Positions 10,436 to 32,000 are shown, counted from the stretch's first letter. The stretch is 32,000 nt of DNA from Erysipelothrix inopinata (GCF_014396165.1 NZ_CP060715.1:660001-692000); one strand, 5' to 3'. The notes: generated from the sequence alone by a model not told the origin. Made by a program: numbers and translations.

Positions 10436-10468
10436 GTGGTTGTAATGAAAGAGATAGGAGTGATACAG

Positions 10469-10909: not shown

Positions 10910-10921
10910 GGAGGAAATACT

Positions 10922-11200: not shown

Positions 11201-11229
11201 TATAAAAGGGAAAGAAGGAGGAGTAAAAA

Positions 11230-12516: not shown

Positions 12517-12523
12517 AACAATA

Positions 12524-12562
12524 AAACCTAAGAACAAGGATCCCTTGTTCTTAAGGTTTATT
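12524..12562 (+). terminator. strong intra-operon hairpin / probable leaky terminator after EIIC
   Basis: The core stem is 11 bp, TAAGAACAAGG atc CCTTGTTCTTA. AAACC/GGTTT extends it with one bulge, and it is followed by TTTATTT. Confidence 0.55.
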
Positions 12563-12596
12563 TGGGGGACATAAAAAAGAGAGTTGAGGATTAAAA

Positions 12597-14077: not shown

Positions 14078-14087
14078 TTGAAAGGGG

Positions 14088-16230: not shown

Positions 16231-16258
16231 AAAAGACAGCTTATGCTGTCTTTTATTC
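16231..16258 (+). terminator. rho-independent terminator after the regulator gene
   Basis: The stem AAAAGACAGC / GCTGTCTTTT has loop ttat, and the T-run continues after it. Confidence 0.85.
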
Positions 16259-16377
16259 GTTTGGACATAGAAATGAACATAACATATAAAATTTCCTAAG
16301 TCATAAACGCTAACCTTGGTGCGTTGATATAAAATTTAATGTTACAATAAATATAAATAGTGAAAGAGAGAGGTAGT

Positions 16378-17559: not shown

Positions 17560-18927
17560 ATGTCAACAATCAAAGATATTTATGGAAGTATTGAAATACC
17601 TGAAGGTGTTTATTGGGGAGCTAACACGCAAAGAAGTCTTCTTAATTTTCCAATCGGTGTGGAGAAAATGCCAGAAGATTTGATTGATGCGCTTGTCATT
17701 TTAAAGAAAGCAGCGGCTGAGGCAAACCTCAAACATAACAAATTAGATGAACCACGTGCACATGCAATCATGAATGCATGCGATAGAATCTTGACAGGTG
17801 AGTACTACGATCAATTTCCACTTGCCATTTGGCAAACAGGAAGTGGTACCCAAACTAATATGAATGCGAATGAAGTTATTGCTAATATGGCGAATGAAGC
17901 ATTGGGCGAGAAACTTGTTCATCCTAATGATCACGTTAATTGTGGCCAAAGTTCCAACGACGTCTTTCCAACTGCCATGCATATTTGTACCGTTGAGATA
18001 TTGAAAAATAGACTTATTCCAAGTATGCATTCAATGGATAGTACATTCTCTATTCTGAGTGAAAAGTACGGTTCAATCCTCAAAACAGGACGAACACACC
18101 TTCAAGATGCAACACCGATTTCTTTTGGACAAGAAATCAGCGGATGGCAATATATGTATGTTGAAGGTATTAAGCAAATTGAAGATGCACTCGTTTATTT
18201 ACGAAATCTTTCAATAGGTTCTACAGCAGTAGGAACGGGATTAAACACTTATGAAGGATTTGACCAAGAGGTATGTAACATTCTTAATAAATATTTAGAA
18301 GAAAGTTTTAAACCAACGCCTAATAAATTTCATGCAATGAGTACCAAGGATGCGTTCGTATTCAACCATGGCGCTCTGAATGCTATTGCAAGTAACTCGA
18401 TGAAAATGGCTAACGATATCCGTTGGTTAGCGAGTGGTCCACGATGTGGATTGGGAGAAATAAATCTGCCTGCAAATGAAGCTGGAAGCTCTATTATGCC
18501 AGGGAAAGTAAACCCAACACAGTGTGAGGCACTGACGATGACTTGCGTACAAGTTATGGCGAATAACCAAGCTGTTGTGATTGGATCCTCACAAGGGAAC
18601 TTTGAACTGAATGTGTATATGCCATTAATTATCTATAATACATGGCAATCGATTGTTCTATTATCAGATGCTCTAAATTCATTTAACGAACGCTGCTTGA
18701 GCGGTATCACGGTTAATGAAGATAAAATGGAAACCAACCTTACAACCTCCCTCATGACTGCTACATTTCTAAACCAAAGATTTGGATATGATGAAACAGC
18801 TAAAATAGTGAAAGAAGCTCACCAAGAAGGCTTAAGTATAAAAGATGTAGTTGTTGGGCATGACCTTATGACTTCGGAAGAATTTGATGTATTCTTTGAT
18901 TATCAAAAGATGATTAAGCCCGAATAA
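17560..18927 (+). CDS. fumC: class II fumarate hydratase
   Basis: The signature GSSIMPGKVNPTQCEA, TGSGTQTNMN and HPNDHVN.GQSSND are present. The ATG directly abuts the malic enzyme TAG. Confidence 0.95.
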   Translation: MSTIKDIYGSIEIPEGVYWGANTQRSLLNFPIGVEKMPEDLIDALVILKKAAAEANLKHNKLDEPRAHAIMNACDRILTGEYYDQFPLAIWQTGSGTQTNMNANEVIANMANEALGEKLVHPNDHVNCGQSSNDVFPTAMHICTVEILKNRLIPSMHSMDSTFSILSEKYGSILKTGRTHLQDATPISFGQEISGWQYMYVEGIKQIEDALVYLRNLSIGSTAVGTGLNTYEGFDQEVCNILNKYLEESFKPTPNKFHAMSTKDAFVFNHGALNAIASNSMKMANDIRWLASGPRCGLGEINLPANEAGSSIMPGKVNPTQCEALTMTCVQVMANNQAVVIGSSQGNFELNVYMPLIIYNTWQSIVLLSDALNSFNERCLSGITVNEDKMETNLTTSLMTATFLNQRFGYDETAKIVKEAHQEGLSIKDVVVGHDLMTSEEFDVFFDYQKMIKPE

Positions 18928-18941
18928 AGAGAGGTGATACG

Positions 18942-20849
18942 ATGAATTCGAGACAACGAAAAATATTAGAATATCTCTCGGATCAGAAAACTTGGATTAA
19001 AGGAAAAGAGCTTTCACGAATAGTGGGGGTAACGGACCGGACAATCCGTTCCGACATTGATTCATTAAATCAAGAACATCCTGGAATTGTCGAATCGAGC
19101 ACACGAGAAGGGTATCAGATAGATATTAGTAAGTACCAATCTCTAAGCTATGCAGATGTTGATGTAATTCCGCAAACACCGGATGAACGGAGTATTCATA
19201 TTATTAAAATTCTTCTGTTTTCTAAGAAACGTCAAAAAATCATGGATTTACAAGAAGAACTATATGTAAGTGAACACACCATCGAAGGTGATATAAAACG
19301 GATTCGTGAATTAATCAAACCCTATGTTGGTCTAAAATTGATACGTGAAGATAACAGTATTTATTTCCAAGGAAATGAACACGTTAAACGTAAAATTTAT
19401 CGTGACTTACTAACAAACGAAATTAAAGATAACTTCTTGAATATCAATCGAACTGCACTATTATACAGTCGTTTCGATTTGGTACAAGTTACGAAAGTAT
19501 TCGAAGATACCTTAGAAGAATTTAATTATTCTGTAAGAGAAACAGCAATACCAATGATTGTGGTTCATATTGGAATTACCATTGAACGAATGTTGAGTGG
19601 CCACTATCTAAGCTTGGAATCGGTAAATAAACAAGCAGGTGATGGCATTGAGTTTGAAATTACGAAGTGTTTCTTTGAAAAAATAACGAAGATGGTACCT
19701 GTTGAATACTCTGAAGCGGAAGCGCGGGGACTTGCGAATATTCTTATGGGATATCAAAATGCTTATCATTTAAGTGAAACCATAGAGTATAAAGGTAAGA
19801 CTGTTGATGTTGCGAAGTTGTTGGATGATGTGACAGATGTTCTACTGGATACATTTGACTTGGATTTCTCTCAAGACAACGATTTCAAGAGCGGACTTCA
19901 TCTTCACATTCAATCACTCGTTCTAAGAATGAAAAATGAATCGGTGATTCCTAACGCTCACCTTCAAGAAGTGAAGAAATCATATCCCTTAATTTTTGAG
20001 ATGGGGTTGGTTATTGGACGCTTAATTGGTAATGCCTTTGGATTTGAATTATCAGAATCTGAAGTAGGTTTTATTTCACTACATATTGGTGCAGCTTATG
20101 ATCGTCTCTCTGTGAAGAAAAAACATCAAGTACTCTTGATTGCACCAAATAATCGGAGTCTTTCGAAACTTACCAAAGGTAAAATTACGAATATGTTCAA
20201 AGATCGATTGGAGATTGCGGAAATATCTGAATACTATGTCGAAAAAGAAGTTATCAACATGAATATTGATTTAATTATAACTACTTTACCGATTGATCAT
20301 AGTCTTGAAATCGAGACGGTACAGATATCGATGTTTGTAAACCATGAAGACGAAAGTAAGATATTTAGAGTGTTAAACGAGTTGGACAAGGAACAGTTTA
20401 ACCTCGAATTTGGTAACCAATTTGGTACCTTAATTGATGAACGATTCTTCTTCAAAGATCTTGATAAAGAAACACCTGAAGAAGTAATTGATTATATGAG
20501 TCAAGAATTATATGAAAATGGTATCGTGTCAAAACACTTTAAAGAGTCTATCTTTGATAGAGAGGCGATGTCATCAACGTCATTTATTTATTCGATTGCA
20601 ATTCCTCATCCATTGGACCTTGAAAGTCAGCAATCAAAAGTTGCGGTAGCACTTCTCAAAAAACCAATACAATGGGGAAGTTACAATGTGAAACTGGTGA
20701 TGATGCTTGCAATTACTGAGGAAGACAGTGCAACAATGTGGTTATTCTTTGACTGGTTGTCAGAGACTATTACGAATGCATCGAAGATGTCAAAGTTATT
20801 ACAATCTAAAAATAGAAATGAATTCGTTCATTGGATGATGAACGACTAG
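18942..20849 (+). CDS. PRD-domain transcriptional regulator, LicR-like (HTH-PRD-PRD-EIIB-like-EIIA-like)
   Basis: The 635-aa protein has an N-terminal HTH (KELSRIVGVTDRTIRSDI) and two PRD-like segments. The EIIB-like segment VLLIAPNNRS has no Cys. The C-terminal EIIA-2-like domain has SIAIPHPLD. The RBS is gagagg. Confidence 0.85.
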   Translation: MNSRQRKILEYLSDQKTWIKGKELSRIVGVTDRTIRSDIDSLNQEHPGIVESSTREGYQIDISKYQSLSYADVDVIPQTPDERSIHIIKILLFSKKRQKIMDLQEELYVSEHTIEGDIKRIRELIKPYVGLKLIREDNSIYFQGNEHVKRKIYRDLLTNEIKDNFLNINRTALLYSRFDLVQVTKVFEDTLEEFNYSVRETAIPMIVVHIGITIERMLSGHYLSLESVNKQAGDGIEFEITKCFFEKITKMVPVEYSEAEARGLANILMGYQNAYHLSETIEYKGKTVDVAKLLDDVTDVLLDTFDLDFSQDNDFKSGLHLHIQSLVLRMKNESVIPNAHLQEVKKSYPLIFEMGLVIGRLIGNAFGFELSESEVGFISLHIGAAYDRLSVKKKHQVLLIAPNNRSLSKLTKGKITNMFKDRLEIAEISEYYVEKEVINMNIDLIITTLPIDHSLEIETVQISMFVNHEDESKIFRVLNELDKEQFNLEFGNQFGTLIDERFFFKDLDKETPEEVIDYMSQELYENGIVSKHFKESIFDREAMSSTSFIYSIAIPHPLDLESQQSKVAVALLKKPIQWGSYNVKLVMMLAITEEDSATMWLFFDWLSETITNASKMSKLLQSKNRNEFVHWMMND

Positions 20850-20858
20850 GAGGAAACT

Positions 20859-21188
20859 ATGGAAGAATTAGAATTAGTAAGTTTTAAAATAATTAGTGCC
20901 GTAGGCGCTGCGAAGTCACTCTTTATGGAAGCTATGATGTATGCTCAAAAGAACGATTTTGTGAAAGCACATGAATTAATTGAAGAAGGTGAAAGCCATC
21001 GTGTTCAAGGACATGAAGCTCACTTTGAATTAATCCAAAAAGAAGCAAGTGGTGAAAAAACTGAAATAAATCTGATCTTGATGCATGCAGAAGATCAATT
21101 GATGTCTGCAGAAACAATTAAAATTTTAGCGGAACAACTTATTAAAAGTTACGAAACTATCAACGAACTTGCACAAAAAATTAAATAA
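20859..21188 (+). CDS. PTS EIIA, lactose/cellobiose/chitobiose family
   Basis: The 109-aa helical protein has the characteristic MHAEDQLM phospho-His context. The RBS is aggagga. Confidence 0.9.
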   Translation: MEELELVSFKIISAVGAAKSLFMEAMMYAQKNDFVKAHELIEEGESHRVQGHEAHFELIQKEASGEKTEINLILMHAEDQLMSAETIKILAEQLIKSYETINELAQKIK

Positions 21189-21192
21189 ACGA

Positions 21193-21230
21193 AAAAGATA
21201 TCTTCCTGAAATCAAGAAGGTATCTTTTTT
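21193..21230 (+). terminator. rho-independent terminator after EIIA(Lac)
   Basis: The stem AAAGATATCTTC / GAAGGTATCTTT contains one G-U pair and is followed by TTTTT. Confidence 0.8.
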
Positions 21231-21634
21231 AGTGGTATTTTTCCAGAAAAAGTGTAAAAAGGCATGAAACTATATTTATTAGTCTCGTCTATATCGACTT
21301 GGTGATTGAAATCTTCGAAATTCATATCTGTTGAATATCATCTGGATTTTTCATAAAACCGTGTTTTATCTGTCATAAAAAATATAAACTTTTGGCACAT
21401 TGGGATGGACATTTTTGATATGAGACATTGCAGATGTTTTTTCGTTCTATTATTGTAACGAAATCGCTCTTGAAAAATAGGGTATTTTTTGAATGACATG
21501 AATCTTTCATGATTATTTCACGATGGTATTTAATGCTTACGTAAGAACGTTCCGTTGTCTTAGGAAATTAAATTATAAGCAAGCGATTACATAGGAAGTT
21601 ATACTATAGTTACAATAAGGAGGGAGAATATCCT

Positions 21635-21958
21635 ATGAAACGTGTATATTTATTCTGTAACGCTGGGATGTCAACAAGCTTGTTAGCAAGTAAAATGCAA
21701 ACAGTTGCGGACGCTCATAAGTTACCGATTGAAGTGAAAGCATTCTCTGATTCAAAGATGGATGCCATTGTTCAGGAATTTCATCCAGATGTTATTTTGC
21801 TAGGGCCACAAATTAAATATAAATTTGAAGAAACTAAAGCAAAATATGGAGATACAGGTGTTCCTATCGAAGTAATCGATTTAGAAGATTATGGGAAAGT
21901 CGATGGAGAACGTGTATTAAAGAAAGCAATTATGCTTATTAAAGGAAAAGGAGAATAA
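21635..21958 (+). CDS. PTS EIIB, lactose/cellobiose/chitobiose family
   Basis: The 107-aa product has the N-terminal active-site Cys loop LFCNAGMSTSLL. The RBS is aaggaggg. Confidence 0.9.
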   Translation: MKRVYLFCNAGMSTSLLASKMQTVADAHKLPIEVKAFSDSKMDAIVQEFHPDVILLGPQIKYKFEETKAKYGDTGVPIEVIDLEDYGKVDGERVLKKAIMLIKGKGE

Positions 21959-21961
21959 CAT

Positions 21962-23314
21962 ATGTTTGATTGGCTAGAAAATACGATGGCGCCAATCGCG
22001 GAAAAACTAAGTACAAATAAAGTGCTTGTTGCAATCCGTGATGGTTTCTTAATCAGTACGCCATTAATTATTGTTGCATCAATATTCTTATTGATCGCGA
22101 ACTTCCCTATTACTGGATATCCAGAATTTATGGAAGGAATCTTTGGGGCAGGGTGGGACAGCCACCTATTAGTAGTATCAAATGCTACAATTAATATGAT
22201 TGCATTGCTTAACGTATTAGGTATTGCTTACTCATATGCAAAACAATTAAAAGTTGAACCAATTGCTGGTGGTGTGGTTGCTCTTGTATCATATCTTATC
22301 ATTACACCACAAACACACGAATTATTCTTAAATGCTGATGGTAAACCATTTAGAGGGTTTGCTTTCTCAAACTTAAACTCACAAGGTTTATTCCTTGCTA
22401 TGATTACTGCTATTATTGCAGTTCAAATCTTCGCGTTTGTAACTAAAAAAGGATGGGTTATTAAACTTCCTGAAGGTGTTCCACCTGCAGTTATGGGATC
22501 TTTCGCTGCTTTAGTTCCAAGTATGTTCGTAATGATTACTTTCTTCTTGGTACGTTTAGTATTCGTTAATACTTCATTTGGAAGTGCACAAAACTTTATC
22601 TTTACAGTATTACAAACACCATTGATGGGTCTTGGAACCAATAACTTCTTTGAAGTAATTTACCAATTCTTATCAAACCTATTCTGGTTCTTTGGTATTA
22701 ATGGACCAGCTATTACAAATACTGTATTCTCACCAATTCACAACACAATGACATATGCTAACCAAGCAGCTTATATTGCTGGTGAAACATTACCATACAT
22801 TTTCACAGGACCATTCTCAGACTTCTTTGGAAACTACGGTGGTGGGGGAAGTACCCTATCATTAGTACTCTTAATGGTTACAATGGGTAAATCCCAACGT
22901 ATGAAACAACTTGGTCGCTTGTCAATTGTTCCTGGTATCTTCGGAATCAACGAAATGATTATCTTTGGTCTTCCAATCGTGTTGAACCCAATCATTCTTA
23001 TTCCATTCTTACTCGTACCAGTTATGAATATTGCTTTATCAACAGCAGCAACAATTATGGGAATCATTCCTTATACAACAGGAATTGCATTACCATGGAC
23101 AACACCAATCTTCTTCTCGGGATGGTTATCAACAGGTAGTCTCTTTGCTGGAGTATTCCAATTAGGTCTTCTAGCACTAGGATGCTTAGTTTACTACCCA
23201 TTCTTCAGAATCTTGGACAAACAATATCTTGAAGATGAAATGAAACCACAAGATACAGTGGTAGACGAATTAGATGATATCTCACTTGATGATATTTCAT
23301 TTGATGATCTATAA
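21962..23314 (+). CDS. PTS EIIC, lactose/cellobiose/chitobiose family
   Basis: The 450-aa polytopic protein starts like ChbC/CelB (..LENTMAPIAEKLSTNKVLVAIRDGF..). It has an unusual acidic C-terminal tail, DELDDISLDDISFDDL. Confidence 0.9.
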   Translation: MFDWLENTMAPIAEKLSTNKVLVAIRDGFLISTPLIIVASIFLLIANFPITGYPEFMEGIFGAGWDSHLLVVSNATINMIALLNVLGIAYSYAKQLKVEPIAGGVVALVSYLIITPQTHELFLNADGKPFRGFAFSNLNSQGLFLAMITAIIAVQIFAFVTKKGWVIKLPEGVPPAVMGSFAALVPSMFVMITFFLVRLVFVNTSFGSAQNFIFTVLQTPLMGLGTNNFFEVIYQFLSNLFWFFGINGPAITNTVFSPIHNTMTYANQAAYIAGETLPYIFTGPFSDFFGNYGGGGSTLSLVLLMVTMGKSQRMKQLGRLSIVPGIFGINEMIIFGLPIVLNPIILIPFLLVPVMNIALSTAATIMGIIPYTTGIALPWTTPIFFSGWLSTGSLFAGVFQLGLLALGCLVYYPFFRILDKQYLEDEMKPQDTVVDELDDISLDDISFDDL

Positions 23315-23327
23315 GAATTAATGTAAT

Positions 23328-23384
23328 TAAACACGAAGCGACTTGTGAAAGACCGATAAGGACTTCATGAGTTTGCTTCGTTTC
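23328..23384 (+). other. long imperfect hairpin in the EIIC-to-next-gene spacer
   Basis: The arms AAACACGAAGCGACTTGTGAAAG and CTTCATGAGTTTGCTTCGTTT include a perfect core ACGAAGC/GCTTCGT plus ACT/AGT and TGAA/TTCA. No clean U-run follows, and the next RBS (taggagga) comes immediately after. Confidence 0.35.
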
Positions 23385-23400
23385 ATTTAGGAGGAACATT

Positions 23401-23919
23401 ATGAGAGTATTACTATTTTTTGATCAAACACAAGCAGGAGCTGGTGGAAAAGAAAGACCTAATGTTGAATTAGCCGTTGAAAAAGGTGGCATTGGTTCTT
23501 ACCATATGTTTGAAAAGTTTATTAAACAAGAAGGTGGCGTTGTTCTGGCAACAATGTACTGCGGTAATGGCTATTTCTTCGATCACGAGGATGAAGTTAA
23601 GCGTAAGGTTGCAGGTCTTGCTACAAAACTAAAAGCAGATATCGTTCTTTGTGGCCCTTGCTTTGATTATCCAGATTATTCAAGAATGTCAGCAATTCTC
23701 GCACAATACATTGAAGAAAATACAGAGACAAAAGCAGTAGCGATGTTCTCAAAAGAGAATACTGAAGTGATTGAACAATACAAAGACACCGTGAAAATAA
23801 TTAAGATGCCACGTAAAGGTGGAACTGGATTGAATGACTCATTGGAAAATATGTCAAAAGTACTGAAAGCAGTTGTTGATAACGAACCGAAATCAACTTA
23901 TGAATCGTTCTTATATTAA
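23401..23919 (+). CDS. stand-alone protein resembling the N-terminal domain of glycine/sarcosine/betaine reductase protein B (GrdB); function unknown
   Basis: The RBS is strong. MRVLLFFDQTQAGAGGKERPN...GGIGSY...MYCGNGYF...LCGPCFDY follows my recollection of the GrdB N-terminus (VVHYINQFFAGIGGEEKAD..GAVGPG..ICGDSYF..IAGPAFNAGRYG). It ends at TAA after 172 aa with no in-frame TGA. Confidence 0.5.
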   Translation: MRVLLFFDQTQAGAGGKERPNVELAVEKGGIGSYHMFEKFIKQEGGVVLATMYCGNGYFFDHEDEVKRKVAGLATKLKADIVLCGPCFDYPDYSRMSAILAQYIEENTETKAVAMFSKENTEVIEQYKDTVKIIKMPRKGGTGLNDSLENMSKVLKAVVDNEPKSTYESFLY

Positions 23920-23928
23920 GGAGTAGCT

Positions 23929-24924
23929 ATGAATCGTTTGCAGGAATTATGTGCATTACCAGCAGTTTCTGGTGATGAAAAAGAAATTCGTGATTATCTT
24001 TATGATTTTTATAAAAGTAAAGATTTGGGAATTATTGAGGATCGTCTAGGATCTGTTTTTGGCGTTAAGAAGGGAAACTCTAATTACAATGTTATGATTA
24101 GTTCAAATATGGATGAAAGTGGCATGATGATTTCTAAAATTAACGATAACGGAAGCTTGGAGTTTATTATTGTTGGGCTCTATAAGAAAGCGTGGTTAAA
24201 CGATCAATTCGTAACACTACTAGATAGACATCACAATAAAAGATCGGGAATCGTTTTAAGAAAAGGTGATGACTTTGTCATTGATGCTGGATTTAAAACA
24301 AAAGGTGAGGCGGAAGAAGCAGGTGTTCTCGTTGGAAACTTTGTGGTAGTTACACCACGATTTGAATCCTTAAATGAGAGTGTTGCGGCTAATAATTTGT
24401 CCAATAGAGCGGGTATTGAAGTTGGGTTAAAGTTACTTGAATCTCTAGAAGCTAATGCGCTTGATTTCAACCTGAATGTTGGTGGTATTTCTCACTCAGT
24501 AGTTGGACAACGTGGAGCGATTACTGCGACAACAGCTGTAAACCCTGATATCGCAATCGTGATTGATGTTGCATATGTTGAAACTTGGGATGACAAGGAT
24601 ATTTTTATTAGAAGCTTTGATAAATCTCTTTTACCAAGTCAAATTCTCAAGCATGATCTCTACGAGGCTGCAAGAAGCTGTGGCTTCAACCCACAAGCTC
24701 ATATTACAGATTTTCCTACCGATGGGTCATTTATTCATAAATCTTTATCAGGAACCCCTACAGTGGTTGTGGTGATTCCGGTTAAATATAAAGATACGAT
24801 TCATAATGTTATCGATACAAAGTATCTCGATAACATCACTAAAGTATTAAATCACTATTTGATATCTCTCAATGCAAACCATATTGTAGAAACTCAAAAC
24901 TGTAGAGGCACTCGATATGAGTAG
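23929..24924 (+). CDS. M42 (TET/FrvX/YsdC) peptidase-family homologue with degenerate metal site (probable non-catalytic subunit)
   Basis: It aligns with the neighbouring M42 gene and with YsdC-type motifs. The ligand positions are changed: HxDExG becomes SSNMDESG, AxDNR becomes NLSNR, QEEVGLRGA becomes SHSVVGQRGA, and RYxHTH becomes KYKDTIH. Confidence 0.8.
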   Translation: MNRLQELCALPAVSGDEKEIRDYLYDFYKSKDLGIIEDRLGSVFGVKKGNSNYNVMISSNMDESGMMISKINDNGSLEFIIVGLYKKAWLNDQFVTLLDRHHNKRSGIVLRKGDDFVIDAGFKTKGEAEEAGVLVGNFVVVTPRFESLNESVAANNLSNRAGIEVGLKLLESLEANALDFNLNVGGISHSVVGQRGAITATTAVNPDIAIVIDVAYVETWDDKDIFIRSFDKSLLPSQILKHDLYEAARSCGFNPQAHITDFPTDGSFIHKSLSGTPTVVVVIPVKYKDTIHNVIDTKYLDNITKVLNHYLISLNANHIVETQNCRGTRYE

Positions 24925-25999
24925 CCATGATATCAATTGGGATGATTTATTAGAGCTGTCTGATATTTTTGGTGTTTCGGGAATGGAACATCGCGTTGTG
25001 AGATATCTACAAGAAAAAATTAATCTCCCCCTTGAACAAGATGGAATAGGCTCAGCACTATTTACTCAAGAGGGCAATGGATTAAGAATTATGATGGCAA
25101 CACATATGGATGAAGTTGGATTTTACGTTAAAAAAATAGACTCCAATGGCTATCTTTTCCTACAACCGGTCGGTGGTATTTGGCCACATGTCATTATGAA
25201 TCAGGATGTGGTTGTTATTAACGATAAAGATGAGGAATTCTACGGCATTATAGGTAGTAAAGCAATGCATGGCATGATGATGGAAGAACGCAGTAAAACG
25301 ATTCCAATGGATCGTGTTTACGTTGATATGGGAGTAAATACTAAAGAAGCAATTCTCAACATGGGTATTAAAGAAGGTGATATGGTCGCATTCGTATCGA
25401 AGAGCCGTATCATGAATGATGAAAATTATATTTGTGGTAAGGCCTTTGATGATCGTGCTAGTGTGGCGGTTGGAATGTGGTTAATGCAATCGCTTCTTGA
25501 AAATCCAACGAAGAATGAAGTGACCCTTGCAGCAACTGTCCAAGAAGAAGTTGGACTTCGAGGTGCCCGAACAACGGCAGATTTAATCTATCCAGATCTT
25601 GCTATTGCGATTGATACAACGGTAGCCGGTGATACACCCGAAGACCAGAATATTGTTAAATTAGGTGGTGGAGTAACAATCAGCGTAATTGACTCGATGA
25701 CTATCTTGAACAGGGGACTTCTCAACTATCTCGAAGGAATTTGTAAAGAAAACAAGATTCAATATCAATTGGGTTGCTTTCTAGATGGTGGTACGGATGC
25801 CGGAAACATTCATAAATCACGTGAAGGGATTCCATCTATTATCTTATCAATCCCAATGAGATATATGCATACACATCGTGGTGTGGTTCATAAATTTGAT
25901 ATTCAAGAAACACTACGATTGGTTGAATATATTGTCAGAGATTTAACACCTGAAAAATATGAACAAATACTAAGTCAGAATTATAATTATAGAGAGTAG
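24917..25999 (+). CDS. M42 family aminopeptidase (TET/FrvX/YpdE-like), catalytic residues intact
   Basis: ATHMDEVGF, KAFDDRASV, VQEEVGLRGA, AIDTTVAGD and MRYMHTH are all present. The start overlaps the upstream gene by 8 nt (ATGAGTAG). Confidence 0.9.
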   Translation: MSSHDINWDDLLELSDIFGVSGMEHRVVRYLQEKINLPLEQDGIGSALFTQEGNGLRIMMATHMDEVGFYVKKIDSNGYLFLQPVGGIWPHVIMNQDVVVINDKDEEFYGIIGSKAMHGMMMEERSKTIPMDRVYVDMGVNTKEAILNMGIKEGDMVAFVSKSRIMNDENYICGKAFDDRASVAVGMWLMQSLLENPTKNEVTLAATVQEEVGLRGARTTADLIYPDLAIAIDTTVAGDTPEDQNIVKLGGGVTISVIDSMTILNRGLLNYLEGICKENKIQYQLGCFLDGGTDAGNIHKSREGIPSIILSIPMRYMHTHRGVVHKFDIQETLRLVEYIVRDLTPEKYEQILSQNYNYRE

Positions 26000-26009
26000 A
26001 GGTATTAGT

Positions 26010-26966
26010 ATGTGGGGCATTATTGCAACATGGCGCATGGCTAAAGAAGGAATTGACAGTGCTTCAGAAATCTTAGGTGAAAAAGGATGTGCTGGAGATG
26101 CTATCGAAACTGCAATTAAAGCAGTGGAAGATTTTCCGTTCTACAAATCTGTAGGATATGGAGGACTTCCAAATGAGGAAATGGAAGTTGAGTTGGATGC
26201 AGCATATATGGACGGAACAACGTTTAATATTGGTGCAGTAGCAGCTATCAAAGATTTTGCGAATCCAATTTCAATTGCTCGTTCCTTAAGTCAATATAAG
26301 GTAAATAATTTATTAGTTGGTGCTGGAGCAGAGGCATACGCTCATAAACAAGGATTTGAACGTAAAAATATGCTAACGGACCGTGCTAAAATTCACTATA
26401 AAAACCGCGTGAAAGACATGCGTGAAATTGAGATATCACCATATTCTGGACATGATACAGTAGGAATGGTATCCGTGGATAGTGAACAAAATGTTGTGGC
26501 AGGTACGTCAACAAGTGGTTTGTTCATGAAGAAAAAGGGACGTGTAGGAGATTCTCCTATCATTGGTTCTGGACTTTATGCAGACAGTCAAGTTGGGGGC
26601 GCTTCCGCAACTGGATTAGGAGAAGACCTGATGAAGGGTGTTGTTTCCTATGAAGTCGTTCGTCTTATGAAAGAAGGACTTTCTCCACAAGAAGCAGTAG
26701 AAAAAGTAACGTTTGATCTTGATCGTGAATTAATTGCGCGTCGCGGTGAAGCGGGAGACATTTCTATTGTTGCGATGAACAAAGATGGTGAGTGGGGAGT
26801 CGCATCAAACATCGAAAACTTCTCATTTGCAGTAGCAACAGAAAAACAAGAAAATACTGTTTATGTTACGAGACGAGAAGGGGATCATATGATTCATGAA
26901 GTTGCGTCTCAAGAATGGTTAGAAAAATATTTAAGTGACCGAATGAAACCTTTGGAGGAAAAATAA
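26010..26966 (+). CDS. glycosylasparaginase-like Ntn amidohydrolase (asparaginase_2 family), cytoplasmic
   Basis: SVGYGGLPNEEMEVELDAAYMDGTTFNIGAV, the autoprocessing site GHD|TVGMV (Thr150, codon 26457-26459), GTSTSG, GRVGDSPIIGSGLYAD and ATGLGEDLM are present. They are closer to AGA-type motifs (HDTIGM, ATGNGDILM) than to EcAIII-type (GTVGAV, CTGTGEVF). There is no signal peptide. Confidence 0.8.
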   Translation: MWGIIATWRMAKEGIDSASEILGEKGCAGDAIETAIKAVEDFPFYKSVGYGGLPNEEMEVELDAAYMDGTTFNIGAVAAIKDFANPISIARSLSQYKVNNLLVGAGAEAYAHKQGFERKNMLTDRAKIHYKNRVKDMREIEISPYSGHDTVGMVSVDSEQNVVAGTSTSGLFMKKKGRVGDSPIIGSGLYADSQVGGASATGLGEDLMKGVVSYEVVRLMKEGLSPQEAVEKVTFDLDRELIARRGEAGDISIVAMNKDGEWGVASNIENFSFAVATEKQENTVYVTRREGDHMIHEVASQEWLEKYLSDRMKPLEEK

Positions 26967-26967
26967 T

Positions 26968-28077
26968 ATGCTCGATCAAATTTATGCAAAAATGGATGAG
27001 TTAATGCCAGATCTCCTAAAATCAATACAACGTCTTGTGGCAATTGAATCTGTTGAAGGTGTGCACACAGAGGATGCACCTTATGGTGAAATGCCCAAAA
27101 AAGCGCTTCTAGAAGTTCTCGCTATCGCTGAAGAATTAGGGTTTAAAACAAAAAACATAGATAATATTATTGGTTATGCACAATATGGTGAAGGAGATGG
27201 TGATTATATCGGTATCTTTGGTCATGTTGACGTCGTTCCTTTGGGTGAAGGGTGGTCTTATCCTCCATTAGGTGGAACGATTGATAAAGGTCGTATTTGG
27301 GGTCGTGGCGTCCTTGATAATAAAGGGCCAATTCTTACAAACCTCTATGCACTTTATGCACTTAAGGAGCTCGGTGTAACATTCAATAAACCGGTTCGTA
27401 TTGTATTTGGTACCAACGAAGAATCTGGGTTTGGTTGTGTTAAACACTACCTTACTAAAGAAAATCCTCCTGTATTTGGATGGACACCCGATTGTAAATG
27501 GCCAGCAGTTTATGGTGAAAGAGGGCGTGCGTTAATCCAATTTGTAAATCACGGATCGCAAGAAGTTTTCAATGATTTCGTTAATGAATATATTCTTTCA
27601 AGCCCAAATAATGGCGTGAAACTCGGTATTAACGTTAAAGATGAAGACTTTGGTGAGATGATTATGCGTGGATATAAACTGGGTATGTCAGATGACAATT
27701 TGTTTTTCCAAATCTCGTTAAGTTATCCAAAAGTGAAAACAGTGGATGAATTGATTGAAATGATTCGTAGAGTAACTCCGGAAAGTATTGAAGTGGTATG
27801 TGCTCATAACTGGGATCCTGTATTTTATGATAAGGAATCAGACGAAATTACATTACTAACAGATGCATATGAAGAAGTAATGGGTGAACGCTTGGCTCCG
27901 GTAACGACAACAGGAGGGACTTATGCAAAAATTATTCCTAATATTATTGCATTTGGACCAAGTTTTCCAGGTCAAAAGGATATTGCTCACTTACCAGATG
28001 AGTGGATGAATCTTGATGATATTTTGAATAATGGTAAAATATATAGTAGTGCACTCTACAAGTTGAGAAATCTATAA
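26968..28077 (+). CDS. M20 family dipeptidase (PepV/Sapep-like)
   Basis: GHVDVVPLGEGW, GRGVLDNKGP, GTNEESGF, TPDCKWPAVYGERG, GGTYAK and AHLPDEW are present. At 369 aa it is about 100 aa shorter than typical PepV. Confidence 0.82.
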   Translation: MLDQIYAKMDELMPDLLKSIQRLVAIESVEGVHTEDAPYGEMPKKALLEVLAIAEELGFKTKNIDNIIGYAQYGEGDGDYIGIFGHVDVVPLGEGWSYPPLGGTIDKGRIWGRGVLDNKGPILTNLYALYALKELGVTFNKPVRIVFGTNEESGFGCVKHYLTKENPPVFGWTPDCKWPAVYGERGRALIQFVNHGSQEVFNDFVNEYILSSPNNGVKLGINVKDEDFGEMIMRGYKLGMSDDNLFFQISLSYPKVKTVDELIEMIRRVTPESIEVVCAHNWDPVFYDKESDEITLLTDAYEEVMGERLAPVTTTGGTYAKIIPNIIAFGPSFPGQKDIAHLPDEWMNLDDILNNGKIYSSALYKLRNL

Positions 28078-28089
28078 GAGGAGATCAAA

Positions 28090-29484
28090 ATGAGAGACAG
28101 CGAATACAGAATTGAACATGACTCACTTGGTGAAGTGAAAGTTCCTAGCCATGCATTGTATGGTGCTCAAACCGTACGTGCGATGCAAAACTTTCAAATT
28201 ACGGGACGTCATGTGAATGATATGATGTATATTTCTTTAGCACAAGTTAAGAAGGCTTGTGCCTTAGCAAACTTTGAAGTGGACGAACTAGATCAAGTTC
28301 GTAAGGATGCTATTGTAATTGCTTGTGATGAAATCATTAGTGGTAAATTCAAAGATGAATTTGTTACGGATGCAATTCAAGGTGGTGCCGGAACTTCAAT
28401 GAATATGAATGTGAACGAAATCATTGCGAATCGTGCTGCGCAAATTGTGGAGAAACCGATTGGTGTTTATGACTTCATTCATCCCAATGATCACGTTAAC
28501 CGTGCTCAATCAACCAATGATATTATTCCTACTGCGGGGAAATTAACCGTTCTTAATCTTGGAGAACTCTTATTAGAAGAAATGGAATTTCTTGCTGAAA
28601 CATTCCATGCGAAAGCGTTGGAGTTTGAACCTATTATTAAAGTAGGGAGAACCCATCTTCAAGATGCCGTTTTAATTTCAATGGGCCAAGTCTTCCATAG
28701 TTATGAATCTGTTGTGCGCCGTGATATATCACGGGTTCAACATGCTCTAAGTGAAATGCAAATCGTAAACTTAGGCGCGACAGCTGTTGGTACAGGAATT
28801 AACTCAGTGCCAGGATATCGTGAACATGCTGTTACAAATCTTTCTCGAATCACTGGGAAGTCATTTGTAAGTGCTGAAGATTTAATTGATGCAACGAAAC
28901 ATATTGATGGATTTGCACATGTTCATGCCTCATTAAAAACGTTTGCAATCGGTCTTTCGAGAATATGTAATGATATTCGAATGATGGCATCCGGTCCAAA
29001 AGTTGGGTTTAATGAAATCTTTTTACCTGAAAAACAACCCGGAAGCTCAATTATGCCAGGAAAGGTGAATCCTGTTATTCCTGAGGTTGTAAACCAAGTT
29101 TGCTTCCAAGTTATTGGTAACGATGCGACGGTAAGTATGGCAGCAGAGGCAGGCCAAATGGAACTTAATGTATTTGAACCTGTCCTATTCTATAACTTGT
29201 TTGAATCGTTAGAAATATTAAGACATGCATGTATGACCTTAAGGGTTCATGCAATCCAAGATATTAAAGTAAATGAACATCGTGTTCATGATTATGTGGA
29301 ACACTCATTAGCAATGGCTACAGCACTTGTTAAGTACTTGGGTTACTCTAAAGTATCCGAAATTACCAAACAAGCTCTAAAAGAAAACAAATCATTACGA
29401 GCAATCGTATTAGAACAAAAACTTATGACGGAAGCAGAAGTTGATGAGGCGTTAAGACCAGAAGCAATGATTCATCCAAGATAA
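28090..29484 (+). CDS. aspA: aspartate ammonia-lyase
   Basis: The aspartase-type signature GSSIMPGKVNPVIPEV (not the fumarase PTQCEA), GGAGTSMNMN and HPNDHVNRAQSTND are present. Confidence 0.92.
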   Translation: MRDSEYRIEHDSLGEVKVPSHALYGAQTVRAMQNFQITGRHVNDMMYISLAQVKKACALANFEVDELDQVRKDAIVIACDEIISGKFKDEFVTDAIQGGAGTSMNMNVNEIIANRAAQIVEKPIGVYDFIHPNDHVNRAQSTNDIIPTAGKLTVLNLGELLLEEMEFLAETFHAKALEFEPIIKVGRTHLQDAVLISMGQVFHSYESVVRRDISRVQHALSEMQIVNLGATAVGTGINSVPGYREHAVTNLSRITGKSFVSAEDLIDATKHIDGFAHVHASLKTFAIGLSRICNDIRMMASGPKVGFNEIFLPEKQPGSSIMPGKVNPVIPEVVNQVCFQVIGNDATVSMAAEAGQMELNVFEPVLFYNLFESLEILRHACMTLRVHAIQDIKVNEHRVHDYVEHSLAMATALVKYLGYSKVSEITKQALKENKSLRAIVLEQKLMTEAEVDEALRPEAMIHPR

Positions 29485-29494
29485 GGAGATTAAC

Positions 29495-30235
29495 ATGAAA
29501 TATTGTATTGAGGTATGTGCGGGATCAGTTCGTGACTGTGAAATAGCACAAGAATGTGGTGCACATCGTATTGAATTAAATAATGGTGTTCATCTTGGTG
29601 GATTAACACCAAGTATTGCGACTTTGATTAAAGCAAAAGAAGTGACGACATTACCGATTGTCAGTATGGTTCGCGTTCGTCCGGGAGGTTTTCATTACAC
29701 ACCTCTTGAAATCGAAACCATGTTTGAAGATGCAAAACATTTGATAAAACATGGAACGGATGCGCTCGTGTTTGGCTTTTTAAACGCTGACAGTTCAGTC
29801 GATATCGAAACGACAAAGAGATTTGTAGATTTATGTCACGAAAATGATGTCGAAGCAGTATTCCATCGTGCATTTGATCGTGTTGATAACCCTTATAGTG
29901 CTATTGAAGCACTCATTGATTGTAAAGTCGACCGAATTCTTACCAGTGGTCTTAAGAGCACTGCTCAAGAGGGTTTAGATTTACTAGGAGAACTTCAAAG
30001 CAAATATGGAGATAAAATTGAATTGTGCCTTGGCGCGGGTGTCAATGCTGAGAATGCTAAAGAACTCATTGAACGAAGTGGTGTTACACAACTTCACGGA
30101 TCGTTCAAAGGTTGGTACCAAGACCCTACTACTAAAGGGAATGATGTATCTTACGGATACAGTGAACTTGGCGATTACGATGGTGTTGATCCTGTAAAAC
30201 TCAAGAAGATGCTGGATACAGTCAATCAAATCTAA
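29495..30235 (+). CDS. cutC: CutC-family TIM-barrel protein
   Basis: IEVCAGSV..A...GA.RIELN....GGLTPS, RPGGF.Y, FHRAFD, ILTSG and GAGV resemble E. coli CutC along the full length. Confidence 0.88.
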   Translation: MKYCIEVCAGSVRDCEIAQECGAHRIELNNGVHLGGLTPSIATLIKAKEVTTLPIVSMVRVRPGGFHYTPLEIETMFEDAKHLIKHGTDALVFGFLNADSSVDIETTKRFVDLCHENDVEAVFHRAFDRVDNPYSAIEALIDCKVDRILTSGLKSTAQEGLDLLGELQSKYGDKIELCLGAGVNAENAKELIERSGVTQLHGSFKGWYQDPTTKGNDVSYGYSELGDYDGVDPVKLKKMLDTVNQI

Positions 30236-30237
30236 AA

Positions 30238-30272
30238 GAAACACAGATGTCCTCAGTACATCTGTGTTTTAT
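30238..30272 (+). terminator. rho-independent terminator after cutC
   Basis: The 10-bp stem ACACAGATGT / ACATCTGTGT has loop cctcagt and is followed by TTTtaT. Confidence 0.85.
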
Positions 30273-30291
30273 ATTATGAAGAGAGGATATT

Positions 30292-32000
30292 ATGAACAAA
30301 GAAATAGAATCAATCATTAATAGAGATTATGAGTTACGAAAGAATCTTTATGAGCACATTGATATAAAAAAATACGATGGTGAAAGAAGTTTATATGCTA
30401 AATATGTTCTTGCGTATCTTTCAGAAGCAGATGTTCAAATTACTCAAATAGAACTGGATGATTTTGTAGAGAACACGTATGCAGTTAAAGATGCTTACCA
30501 TCAAAATATACCGGATCAAATATTTTATGACTATGTATTACAACCCAAAGTTAATAATGAAAGACTTGATGCATGTCGACAATATTTTAGAGGACTCACT
30601 GAAGGAATGCTTGGCGATGATTTGAAAGAAACTATTTTTGCGCTTAATTATTGGATGATAGGTATCGTTCAGTACCGAAGTACAGATGCTCGTACACAGT
30701 ATGCGTCACTGACTTATAAAAATGGTACCGGACGTTGTGGCGAAAAATCCACATTTCTAGTCCAAGTTTTGAGAGCGAACGGAATACCTGCACGTCAAAT
30801 ATATGCACCATGGTGGACACATAGTGATGACCGTCATGCATGGGTGGAGGTTTATATCAATGGTGAGTGGCATTATCTTGGTGCAGGCGATGCAGAAGAA
30901 AACTTTGATACTGCGTGGTTTACACTTGCAGCATCAAGAGCACTCGTTGTGCAATCAAACCAATTCTCTAGCTTACCAACCCCTGAACCAGTTTTAGAAG
31001 ACCATGGAATTTATAAGAAAATCAGCGTGATACAAAGATATAATCGTACTCATGAGGTAGAGGTGGAAATTGATGTAGAACCAATTAAAGCGGTGAGTGT
31101 TTGTGTGGTCAATTATGGAAACTTAAAGAAAGTGGTAACTCAACCCGTACTTAATGGAAAAGCTGTATTTACATTGGGTGGTGGTGATGCATTTGTATAT
31201 GCTCAAGTAGGGGAAAAACACTATTTAGAACCTATTAGTGAGAGCACTCGAAGTGTTGTTTTGAATAACAATTCTTTAATCGAAGATGAAAATGTTGACC
31301 TAGTTCAAAAGGCACAGGACCTTCATTTGAAACCTAAGTCGAGCACAGAAGTTGAAGCACAGCGAAAAGTTCAACGTAAAAACGAGGGTTTGAAGCGTTA
31401 TCGTGAAAGAATTGCGACACTTGATGAACAACGAACTAAAGTGGAGCCACAAAACATTCAAGAACTTAGAGCAAGAATTGGGGATGTTCGAACCGAAGAA
31501 GTACTCAGTTTGCTTTCGGAAAAAGATCAGTATGATTTTGATGCAAATATGTTGGCTGAACACTGCGATATCGTAGAAAAATATAGAGGAAAATACCCAA
31601 TTCAAATTTTTAGAGAGAGCATCCTCAATCCGCGTGTCGCGTATGAAAACATTGTTGCCTACGCCAAAGTATTTGAATCTTATTGCGAAGACAATCCTCT
31701 AGAAATATATAAGAGTGTTATGAATGGTGTGAGCGAAAAATCCGAATATTTTGTTGAAGATACGATTATGCCTTTTACAGAAGTGATTCGTAACAATGTT
31801 GGTACTTATTTTGATAAACAACTCACCATAGTTGCAATATGTCGTAGCAAAGGGATTCCCGCACGCTTTAATGACGTTAACAATGTTGTGGAAATATATA
31901 CCGATGGCAACTATCTTAATATTGAAAGAAAACCGGAGTTTAATGTTAAGCTTACGGAAGAAATGGCTAAATACACTGTCAGTTTGACACCAAGCAATCC
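30292..32000 (+). CDS. transglutaminase-core (PNGase-like) domain protein, 5' part (runs off the window)
   Basis: Manual translation from ATG 30292 (RBS agagagga) stays open to the window end (over 569 codons). GTGRCGEKSTFLVQVLRANGIPARQIY..DDRHAWVEVYINGEWHYLGAGD gives Cys149 (30736-30738), His182 (30835-30837) and Asp200 (30889-30891). A second, Cys-less repeat (GTYFDKQLTIVAICRSKGIPARF) lies near 31800-31870. There is no signal peptide. It is absent from the ORF track because no stop lies in the window. Confidence 0.75.
   Translation, partial: MNKEIESIINRDYELRKNLYEHIDIKKYDGERSLYAKYVLAYLSEADVQITQIELDDFVENTYAVKDAYHQNIPDQIFYDYVLQPKVNNERLDACRQYFRGLTEGMLGDDLKETIFALNYWMIGIVQYRSTDARTQYASLTYKNGTGRCGEKSTFLVQVLRANGIPARQIYAPWWTHSDDRHAWVEVYINGEWHYLGAGDAEENFDTAWFTLAASRALVVQSNQFSSLPTPEPVLEDHGIYKKISVIQRYNRTHEVEVEIDVEPIKAVSVCVVNYGNLKKVVTQPVLNGKAVFTLGGGDAFVYAQVGEKHYLEPISESTRSVVLNNNSLIEDENVDLVQKAQDLHLKPKSSTEVEAQRKVQRKNEGLKRYRERIATLDEQRTKVEPQNIQELRARIGDVRTEEVLSLLSEKDQYDFDANMLAEHCDIVEKYRGKYPIQIFRESILNPRVAYENIVAYAKVFESYCEDNPLEIYKSVMNGVSEKSEYFVEDTIMPFTEVIRNNVGTYFDKQLTIVAICRSKGIPARFNDVNNVVEIYTDGNYLNIERKPEFNVKLTEEMAKYTVSLTPSN

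Follow-up and report, generated by a model that had tools for sequence, protein, structure and literature searches.

A probable two-operon locus for import and breakdown of GlcNAc-asparagine in Erysipelothrix inopinata, an extended relative of the enterococcal ega locus

Introduction

What does a sugar phosphotransferase system (PTS) of the lactose/cellobiose/chitobiose (Lac) family import when its genes are accompanied by an amidase and peptidases and by no glycosidase? The question is posed by a stretch of 32,000 nucleotides (nt) from Erysipelothrix inopinata (GCF_014396165.1, NZ_CP060715.1:660001-692000), referred to here as the window, with positions counted from its first letter. The initial annotation of the window, made from the sequence alone, had suggested that genes at 21635-30235 form an undescribed system in which N-acetylglucosaminyl-asparagine (GlcNAc-Asn) is imported by a Lac-family PTS and cleaved by a cytoplasmic amidase, with conversion of the released aspartate to fumarate. 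GlcNAc-Asn is the glycoamino acid left after endo-beta-N-acetylglucosaminidase and protease digestion of N-glycoproteins. Here we present evidence that the region 16360-30270 is very likely a two-operon locus for PTS import and breakdown of GlcNAc-Asn, related to the ega locus of Enterococcus faecalis and extended relative to it. Active-site residues, phylogeny, gene neighbourhood and published homologous loci all agree with the proposed pathway, which has precedents.

Results

ORF calling placed nine tightly packed, co-directional open reading frames (ORFs) on the + strand at 21635-30235, exactly where the initial annotation had them, with gaps that were also as described: in order, 3, 86, 9, -8 (an overlap), 10, 1, 12 and 10 nt. 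These genes form the downstream, catabolic operon of the region 16360-30270. The upstream operon begins with a malic enzyme gene, then one for a probable class II fumarase, followed by a LicR-like regulator and enzyme IIA (EIIA) of the PTS; all features of the two operons given below lie on the + strand. A second, independent assembly contains an identical locus with the same gene calls. The absence of a glycosidase was borne out, in that Pfam and NCBIfam profiles detected no glycoside hydrolase (GH) family among the nine operon products, phospho-beta-glycosidases of families GH1, GH4 and GH170 included. The same profiles recovered the predicted cargo, namely an N-terminal nucleophile (Ntn) hydrolase, an M20 dipeptidase, aspartase, CutC, a GrdB-like protein and two M42 homologues (M42a and M42b), the first of which has lost its metal and catalytic residues.

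The amidase encoded at 26010-26966 (PF01112, Asparaginase_2) is predicted to be a cytoplasmic glycosylasparaginase resembling EgaG of E. faecalis and AsnA2 of L. casei. A 100% identical E. inopinata protein carries the NCBI name N(4)-(beta-N-acetylglucosaminyl)-L-asparaginase. Among all PDB sequences, its best matches are to Flavobacterium glycosylasparaginase (198 bits, E 1.5e-57), whereas isoaspartyl peptidases, ASRGL1 and E. coli EcAIII score about 115 bits or less. The sole NCBIfam match is a beta-aspartyl-peptidase model (NF007589) at 119.7 bits against a cut-off of 567 bits. Residues H148-D149-T150 align with H150-D151-T152 of the Flavobacterium enzyme, the autoprocessing site with its nucleophile Thr, and W8, T168, R178, D181, T201 and G202 align with W11, T170, R180, D183, T203 and G204; nine of the nine glycosylasparaginase residues examined are retained. 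Arg180 and Asp183 hold the aspartyl moiety, Thr203-Gly204 are oxyanion residues, and Trp11 lies at the sugar-binding site. The Trp11 position is occupied by Ala or Lys in the two isoaspartyl peptidases compared. Phe13 of the Flavobacterium enzyme is replaced by Met in the window and in all Bacillota homologues compared. The N-terminus, MWGIIATW, lines up with the start of the mature Flavobacterium enzyme, which indicates that the hydrolase lacks a signal peptide and is cytoplasmic.

Phylogeny, proposed with the initial annotation as a check, grouped the hydrolase with glycosylasparaginases and not with isoaspartyl peptidases. The alignment and tree (neighbour-joining, no bootstrap) included four glycosylasparaginases (that of Flavobacterium and three others so annotated), two isoaspartyl peptidases (E. 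coli IaaA and a cyanophycin-linked one from Rhizobium), and homologues from Bacillota and Lactobacillales. The clade containing the window protein is sister to an EgaG/AsnA2-like clade of Lactobacillales (enterococcal, Vagococcus and Latilactobacillus proteins), and the two together are sister to glycosylasparaginases of Bacteroidota and Proteobacteria, with IaaA and the Rhizobium enzyme outside. Identity is 53-55% to the enterococcal and L. curvatus enzymes and 30% to IaaA. A metagenomic relative (P0028) displays an apparent fusion of GrdB-like and Ntn proteins; its linker resembles a translated intergenic spacer, pointing to read-through or an assembly artefact, and the fusion was therefore dropped as Rosetta-stone evidence. 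Two other Ntn proteins (P0014, P0023) contain internal tandem duplications that are probably assembly or gene-calling artefacts.

Pfam and NCBIfam also agree with the earlier assignment of the transporter to the Lac family and of its EIIA and regulator to the operon just upstream. Enzyme IIB (EIIB) is encoded at 21635-21958 (PF02302, E 9.5e-16), enzyme IIC (EIIC) at 21962-23314 (PF02378; TIGR00410, lacE subfamily, 389 bits), and EIIA, the cognate phosphoryl donor, at 20859-21188 (PF02255, E 1.6e-29; TIGR00823). EIIC falls in an ega-type subgroup and is proposed, by analogy with its homologues, to be a GlcNAc-Asn permease. It scores 336 bits against B. cereus ChbC (3QNQ) and is 47-49% identical to the ega-type EIICs of Enterococcus gilvus and L. 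curvatus; EIIB is 43% identical to that of the E. gilvus ega locus. Where ChbC reads GIHG (His250), the window EIIC reads GING, Asn replacing His, and Glu334 of ChbC is retained in ega-type EIICs. The motif G[IV]NG occurs in 67 of 69 aligned EIICs from the cassette and ega-type loci described below (L001-L082 and L095), those of E. gilvus, E. thailandicus and L. curvatus included. The two that keep GIH are most likely the weakly matching second EIICs of loci L015 and L021. To judge from this alignment, G[IV]NG may serve as a simple signature for GlcNAc-Asn-type permeases of the Lac family. The regulator (18942-20849) is of LicR/Mga type with PTS regulation domains (PRD) and a C-terminal EIIA2 domain (Pfam HTH_11, HTH_Mga, Mga, two PRD stretches, PTS_EIIA_2). 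No GntR gene was found between 14088 and 32000.

Conservation of the gene linkage in related genomes had been proposed as a further check, and the cassette was found in dozens of Bacillota species. A scan with one genome per species yielded 428 relatives, and the best 80 loci, none enterococcal, were searched by tblastn with all window proteins; counts refer to the 50 loci whose flanks were long enough. The cassette that recurs is LicR-EIIA-EIIB-EIIC-GrdB-like-Ntn-M20-CutC, with hosts among Erysipelotrichaceae, Lachnospiraceae, Clostridium, Peptacetobacter, Butyricicoccus, Granulicatella, Streptococcus cuniculi and Leptotrichia. M20, which adjoins the Ntn gene, is present in 48/50 loci, EIIC in 43, EIIB and CutC in 39 each, the GrdB-like gene in 38, LicR (upstream of the cassette) in 36 and EIIA in 33. 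AspA was found in six of the 50, malic enzyme in four and the M42 pair in three to four. Because the linkage recurs in most of 80 species-level genomes, chance is excluded as its explanation. The M42 pair and the genes for aspartase, fumarase and malic enzyme have been added in particular lineages. E. rhusiopathiae encodes close copies of the Ntn hydrolase (90%) and of the GrdB-like protein.

Some cassettes contain a GH170 gene of the MupG family, at 8381-9505 in locus L016 and 7323-8414 in L034 (in both, within the GrdB-like/Ntn interval) and at 8686-9780 in L029 (just upstream of Ntn). A further one in L077, between the GrdB-like and Ntn genes, was assigned by position and size, and L016 also carries an M23 peptidase gene. 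Genetics in L. paracasei show the MupG family of GH170 to be necessary for PTS-imported N,N'-diacetylchitobiose (PMC12791066), which hints that chitobiosyl-Asn, as a fragment of the N-glycan core, or a related substrate may be used by the species with those cassettes.

Several further neighbours that recur beside the cassette in other genomes are absent from the window. Locus L010 has a small RDD-family membrane protein between LicR and EIIA (6758-7312) and a YitT/DUF2179 membrane protein after CutC (12811-13686). In S. cuniculi a DUF7916 protein follows M20 (L047, 12116-13018), and an ORF of similar size follows CutC in Granulicatella. The closest relative of the window (L001, Ntn 97% identical) has about 0.9 kb extra between EIIA and EIIB, an insertion with two minus-strand ORFs of 195 and 183 residues (L001 4303-5419), the first without a Pfam match.

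The claim that the system is undescribed did not stand, being preceded by AsnA2/PepV of L. casei, the NCBI protein name and the ega locus of E. faecalis, which mediates the use of GlcNAc-Asn. The name ega, for enterococcal glycosylasparaginase, comes from Combret et al. (Res Microbiol 175:104169, pmid 37977353), cited here through PMC11549559 and PMC11976118; the layout is egaRP / egaG-EIIB-EIIC-GrdB-like. OG1RF_10933-10939 are described as coding for a regulator of the GntR family, a dipeptidase, EgaG as the glycosylasparaginase, and EIIB and EIIC of Lac/cellobiose type, with a further pseudogene whose counterpart in other strains is a GrdB-type 'putative oxidoreductase' (PMC11549559). The 'GlcNAc-L-Asn PTS' of E. 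faecalis is described as borrowing CelA1 for its EIIA (PMC11976118). Three loci in our data fit this published composition: E. gilvus megaplasmid pCR1A (L081; GntR, Sapep dipeptidase, Ntn, EIIB, EIIC, EIIA), the E. thailandicus chromosome (GntR, M20, Ntn, EIIB, EIIC) and an L. curvatus replicon (Ntn, GntR, GrdB-family, EIIC, Sapep). In E. gilvus and E. raffinosus the ega-type locus resides on megaplasmids of about 0.9-1.2 Mb, near an IS1182 transposase in E. gilvus.

The window shares with ega a cytoplasmic glycosylasparaginase, Lac/cellobiose EIIB and EIIC, a Sapep/PepV-type M20 and a GrdB-like protein in one locus. Compared with other enterococci, identity is 53-55% for Ntn, 47% for EIIC, 43% for EIIB and 37% for M20, with Asn in place of His250 common to the EIICs. 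The genes are arranged differently, M20 of the window is smaller by about 65 residues (369 versus 431-433), and EIIA has its own gene in the window instead of being borrowed, as CelA1 is in E. faecalis. Found in the window over and above the ega genes are the M42a/M42b pair, aspartase and CutC, together with fumarase and malic enzyme in the upstream operon.

A second precedent is the alf-2 cluster of L. casei/paracasei, comprising AsnA2, PepV, AsdA, SugK, AlfH and AlfC (PMC6960285; 2020). AsnA2 is signal-peptide-less, self-processing and active on GlcNAc-Asn, and is linked to pepV and an aspartate-disposing enzyme (PMC6960285). Common to alf-2 and the window are an intracellular glycosylasparaginase linked to a PepV-type M20 and an aspartate-disposing enzyme alongside, the alf-2 substrate being an N-glycan core glycoamino acid. 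In contrast, alf-2 relies on a major facilitator superfamily permease, with GlcNAc then phosphorylated by the ROK kinase SugK and no PTS, encodes a fucosidase, and has a putative aspartate 4-decarboxylase where the window has aspartase. The glycosylasparaginases of Elizabethkingia (Flavobacterium) meningoseptica and human AGA (1AYY, 2GAW, 9GAA, 1APY) share the Ntn fold family, HDT site, Arg/Asp pair, Thr-Gly and Trp11. They differ in sequence (37.5% identity) and are secreted, periplasmic or lysosomal, whereas the window hydrolase is predicted to be cytoplasmic and is coupled to a PTS, with a substrate that may be 6-phosphorylated.

Chitobiose-type operons (B. cereus ChbC 3QNQ; E. coli chb; L. 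paracasei chb) share the EIIA/EIIB/EIIC family and commonly a PRD-type regulator. The window departs from them in having no GH1, GH4 or GH170 phospho-glycosidase, in the His250-to-Asn change, and in a cargo of amidase and peptidases. The cryptic PTS loci of E. coli (frvX, sgcX, ypdE) resemble the window in placing an M42 aminopeptidase homologue beside PTS genes. The best NCBIfam matches of both M42 genes are indeed frvX/sgcX/ypdE-type models (NF007421, NF007367), all far under equivalog cut-offs. The E. coli loci differ in having no glycosylasparaginase; their PTS belong to other families, with unknown substrates. Collectively, these comparisons place the window locus as an extended relative of enterococcal ega, a kind of system described in E. 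faecalis (2023) and, with another transporter, in L. casei (2020).

Three genes of the operon encode peptidase homologues. M42b (24917-25999; PF05343, E 3.3e-90) is a TET-type M42 aminopeptidase with an intact active site: it keeps the two-metal site (His, Asp, Glu, Asp, His) and the catalytic Glu, and alignment with B. subtilis YsdC (1VHE, 223 bits) recovers the motifs HMDEVG, FDDR, QEEVG, IDT and YMHTH. In M42a (23929-24924), a weak Peptidase_M42 match (E 4e-40), the residues H, D, E, E and H of M42b are replaced by N, S, S, V and D; one Asp ligand is retained, and five of the six two-metal/catalytic positions are lost. The M42a orthologues in Leptotrichia, S. cuniculi and Granulicatella show the same degeneration. 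With these substitutions, M42a is a conserved pseudo-enzyme and probably a non-catalytic structural partner of M42b, and the 8-nt overlap of the two genes suggests a hetero-oligomer. The pair accompanies a distinct EIIC subgroup, 64-67% identical among Leptotrichia, S. cuniculi and Granulicatella and about 45% to the majority. Both M42 copies are intact in Stoquefichus (L011); in Longicatena (L029) one copy is intact over its full length and the other is cut by the locus end.

The M20 gene (26968-28077) encodes a short dipeptidase of Sapep/PepV type, resembling EgaP and PepV (TIGR01887, 330 bits). It aligns to S. aureus Sapep (3KHZ) in two blocks, with lid residues ~217-313 (about 100 residues) missing and the metal-ligand motifs retained. 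Its 369 residues lie within the range of 368-371 shared by most of the LicR-type cassettes that were checked; the length is 391-408 in two M42-type loci and 431-440 in the enterococcal and L. curvatus copies. Identity to the E. gilvus and L. curvatus copies is 35-37%. Peptide trimming ahead of the amidase would be a reasonable role for the peptidases, because the amidase needs a free alpha-carboxyl (PMC6960285). An L. casei pepV mutant grew normally on 6'FN-Asn, so the linked pepV is dispensable there (PMC6960285).

A route for aspartate is encoded in full. Aspartate ammonia-lyase, which converts aspartate to fumarate and NH3, lies at 28090-29484 (NF008909, 645.6 bits versus a cut-off of 510). 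The probable class II fumarate hydratase (17560-18927; Lyase_1, FumaraseC_C) scores 626.5 bits with TIGR00979 (fumC_II), just below the 664.75 cut-off and above aspartase models. Malic enzyme, the first gene of the upstream operon (16360-17559; Pfam malic and Malic_M), matches an NCBIfam NADP-dependent malic enzyme subfamily (E 1.6e-101). All three genes are added in the window and in E. aquatica. The malic enzyme gene is linked to the cassette in L001-L003 and stands beside AspA in Clostridium loci L048 and L069. Independent recruitment of AspA and malic enzyme beside the cassette in two Clostridium species points to aspartate as a product of the pathway.

The GrdB-like protein (23401-23919) matches NF041545 (GrdB_like_no_Se, 241 bits), a GrdB-N-terminal-like family without selenocysteine, and resembles the EgaD-type 'putative oxidoreductase'. 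Its motifs DQxQ..GGKE, CGP and MPKKGG are invariant or nearly so in 24 sequences; within a thioredoxin-like CGPC, all of these keep Cys84-Gly-Pro and at least 90% keep Cys87. The AlphaFold2 model is a three-layer alpha/beta domain (mean predicted local distance difference test 96.8). No informative PDB match was found by sequence or fold, and no solved structure exceeded a template-modelling score of 0.52. Identity to the L. curvatus copy is 38.5%.

CutC (29495-30235) is a TIM-barrel protein (PF03932, E 3.4e-51; human CUTC 3IWP, E 1.8e-36). CutC protein function is open, the copper phenotype of E. coli cutC having been reassigned to the small RNA MicL. Of ten annotated non-enterobacterial replicons sampled via CutC, eight place the gene in amino-sugar or N-glycan clusters; the link was not seen in Parabacteroides or Cetobacterium. 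Three of the eight, two from Hymenobacter and one from Fulvitalea, have a glycosylasparaginase gene directly beside CutC, and in two of these three GH92 or GH2 genes come next. Five alphaproteobacterial replicons are also among the eight, the neighbours being nagA, ROK, GH20 and nagB in Kozakia; MurQ and ROK in Qingshengfaniella; a SIS isomerase and ROK in Paracoccus; GH20, an M81 peptidase and nagB in Loktanella; and a BadF/BcrA-type ATPase in Asticcacaulis. The clustering spans three phyla (CutC-context genes: L083 6909-7664, L094 3983-4756, L092 4016-4744, L091 3992-4726, L097 3974-4717, L098 3992-4732 and L093 3929-4711). Our literature search found no paper tying CutC to glycosylasparaginase or GlcNAc pathways.

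The terminators that had been drawn around the operon were both recovered, their z scores comparing fold energy with shuffled sequence. The intrinsic terminator of the regulator/EIIA operon (21191-21230) combines a stem of 15 bp with a T run behind it (-17.2 kcal/mol, z -5.3). That of the catabolic operon (30238-30270), usable on both strands, has a 13-bp stem in the fold and 12 pairs in the scan (-16.1 kcal/mol, z -4.9). A further terminator-like hairpin (16231-16254) precedes the upstream operon. The non-coding stretch of about 400 nt at 21231-21634 constitutes the leader/promoter region of the catabolic operon and is presumed to be the target of the LicR-type activator. No Rfam family matched it or any other part of the window, and an RNA regulator in the leader was accordingly set aside; a sigma-70 promoter scan gave no enrichment over shuffles. 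The 86-nt gap between EIIC and the GrdB-like gene contains a stable hairpin at 23335-23379 (-22.1 kcal/mol, z -3.5), with UUUCAUUU after it, that may attenuate read-through inside the operon or serve as a processing/stability element for the transporter part of the mRNA.

Beyond the second terminator lies a transglutaminase-core gene (30292-32000, running past the window end) that the initial annotation had read as a PNGase-like part of the system. The protein is 764 residues long in an identical contig and is followed by the housekeeping genes MreB, TilS, Hpt and FtsH. Transglut_core (PF01841, E 8.4e-22, residues 110-194) is its sole Pfam match, and neither the PDB (at E<=0.01) nor NCBIfam yielded a match. 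A visible GRCGE...DRHAW motif is not diagnostic. The PNGase reading was rejected, the resemblance being at superfamily level with no detectable similarity to solved PNGases. Since the gene stands behind the strong operon terminator and beside the cassette in one of 50 loci (that of the closest relative), we leave it out of the GlcNAc-Asn system, to which it probably does not belong.

A separate PTS locus, outside the GlcNAc-Asn system, occupies 10358-16175 upstream. It comprises an ascorbate/galactitol-type EIIC (PF03611, 11230-12516) with small flanking ORFs and an Mga/PRD/EIIA2 regulator (14088-16175). A KDPG/KHG-aldolase gene is found on the opposite strand at 9587-10342.

Discussion

We propose that GlcNAc-Asn would be imported by EIIA (20859), EIIB (21635) and the ega-type EIIC (21962), and that GlcNAc would be phosphorylated at O-6 on import, as by all Lac-family PTS. 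If the sugar arrives 6-phosphorylated, the amidase must accept 6-P-GlcNAc-Asn and the product would be GlcNAc 6-phosphate (GlcNAc-6-P). The Ntn hydrolase (26010) would cut the N4 amide to yield L-aspartate and 1-amino-GlcNAc(-6-P), which would lose ammonia to give GlcNAc(-6-P) for the nag pathway. Judging from gene content, aspartase (28090), fumarase (17560) and malic enzyme (16360) would convert aspartate successively to fumarate, malate and pyruvate. The M20 dipeptidase and M42b, with its dead partner M42a, would probably trim residual amino acids and free the alpha-amino and alpha-carboxyl groups of Asn. By its family and domains, the LicR-type PRD regulator (18942) is predicted to activate the operon according to the phosphorylation state of the PTS. 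The GrdB-like protein and CutC are conserved cassette parts with no assigned step. The analysis itself establishes which genes are present, that active sites and linkage are conserved, where the hydrolase falls in the tree, and the EIIC signature. GlcNAc-Asn is on this footing a well-supported prediction for the substrate, and both the substrate and PTS dependence are carried over from the literature on homologues (PMC11549559, PMC11976118).

Several considerations weigh against this reading. Our literature search found no experiment on Erysipelothrix or on any LicR-type cassette. The characterised EgaG of E. faecalis is linked to the window hydrolase indirectly, by way of published descriptions and of other enterococci that have its gene order, and no E. 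faecalis protein is among the 120 matches listed for the window Ntn or for the E. gilvus Ntn. The regulator is LicR/PRD in the window versus the GntR-type EgaR in ega. With only 53-55% (Ntn) and 47-49% (EIIC) identity to the Lactobacillales proteins, substrate range could differ. The hydrolase would have to accept a 6-phosphorylated substrate, and a pure GlcNAc-Asn substrate does not explain two or three peptidases.

The peptidases bear most directly on a wider substrate range, in which the PTS of the M42 lineage would import, besides GlcNAc-Asn, short GlcNAc-peptides (Xaa-Asn(GlcNAc), Asn(GlcNAc)-Xaa) or chitobiosyl-Asn, to be trimmed by an M42a/M42b complex and the lid-shortened M20 before the amidase acts. 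This overlaps with GlcNAc-Asn import and we regard it as possible, though on the unlikely side. To our knowledge no PTS carries peptides, and the E. aquatica EIIC is 70% identical to that of the window, yet no M42 genes are present there. The close association of M20 with Ntn, the separate EIIC subgroup that accompanies the M42 pair and the GH170 genes of some cassettes, which suit chitobiosyl substrates, all favour it, as does the requirement of glycosylasparaginases for a free alpha-carboxyl on Asn (PMC6960285). Against this, growth of the L. casei pepV mutant on 6'FN-Asn was normal (PMC6960285), and the peptidases could merely salvage peptides or serve other substrates. A range that includes GlcNAc-peptides and chitobiosyl-Asn is compatible with all observations.

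Other readings detach the hydrolase from GlcNAc-Asn. Were it an isoaspartyl peptidase or L-asparaginase working with M42, M20 and aspartase in salvage of beta-aspartyl peptides, the PTS would serve an unrelated beta-glucoside such as chitobiose. The sole NCBIfam match and the encoded peptidases and aspartase fit that idea, yet the match is far under its cut-off, the hydrolase retains Trp11, stands outside the isoaspartyl clade and scores 198 bits to glycosylasparaginase versus about 115 to isoaspartyl peptidases, and no phospho-beta-glycosidase for a disaccharide is found among the nine products. With the PTS-Ntn-M20 linkage across dozens of species, the ega-type EIIC signature and published GlcNAc-Asn phenotypes for homologous loci, we consider such salvage highly improbable. 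Equally improbable is peptidoglycan recycling, with PTS import of a muropeptide of GlcNAc or N-acetylmuramic acid, degradation of its stem by the peptidases and removal of a D-iso-Asx bridge residue by Ntn. Genes of the MupG (6-phospho-N-acetylmuramidase) family in L016, L029, L034 and, by position and size, L077, with the M23 peptidase of L016, speak for it. These genes are, however, a minority feature of a family that also serves chitobiose-6-P (PMC12791066), Pfam and NCBIfam detect no MupG, MurQ or amidase gene of that pathway in the window, and the hydrolase is of glycosylasparaginase type, with homologues acting on GlcNAc-Asn in L. casei (PMC6960285) and in E. faecalis (PMC11976118). Catabolism of Amadori or other N-glycosyl amino acids such as fructose-Asn, offered as an alternative in the initial annotation, gained no supporting result. 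Only the general logic of an amidase with an aspartase favours it; by Pfam and NCBIfam the operon encodes no kinase, deglycase or SIS-type enzyme, the transporter is of Lac/chitobiose family (336 bits to the diacetylchitobiose EIIC), and the hydrolase retains the glycosylasparaginase residues examined, Trp11 included. We judge it extremely unlikely.

Within the preferred reading of GlcNAc-Asn breakdown, CutC is a candidate amino-sugar enzyme because it is present in 39/50 cassettes, beside glycosylasparaginase in three Bacteroidota replicons, and in nagA/nagB/ROK/GH20/MurQ-type clusters of five alphaproteobacterial replicons. That it handles the glycosylamine or another amino-sugar intermediate is speculation. 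A bolder combination, which we hold to be rather doubtful, is that CutC speeds breakdown of 1-amino-GlcNAc(-6-P) at cytoplasmic pH, that the M42-lineage PTS takes up short GlcNAc-peptides, and that the CGPC-containing GrdB-like protein has a dedicated role; the peptides may then be trimmed by an M42a/M42b hetero-oligomer and the lid-shortened M20.

The locus represents no new kind of biology, its unexplained conserved accessories being CutC, the GrdB-like protein, the pseudo-M42 partner and the short M20. The linkage of CutC to the cassette could help settle the function of this widely conserved protein. With annotation transferred from E. faecalis, the cassette can be read as serving utilisation of GlcNAc-Asn, the stub of N-glycoproteins, in gut and host-associated Bacillota, where it is widespread and includes among its hosts the animal pathogen Erysipelothrix rhusiopathiae. 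Bacteria with the cassette would be able to exploit the N-glycan linkage for its sugar as well as its aspartate, and in the Erysipelothrix lineage of the window a complete aspartate-to-pyruvate route is attached.

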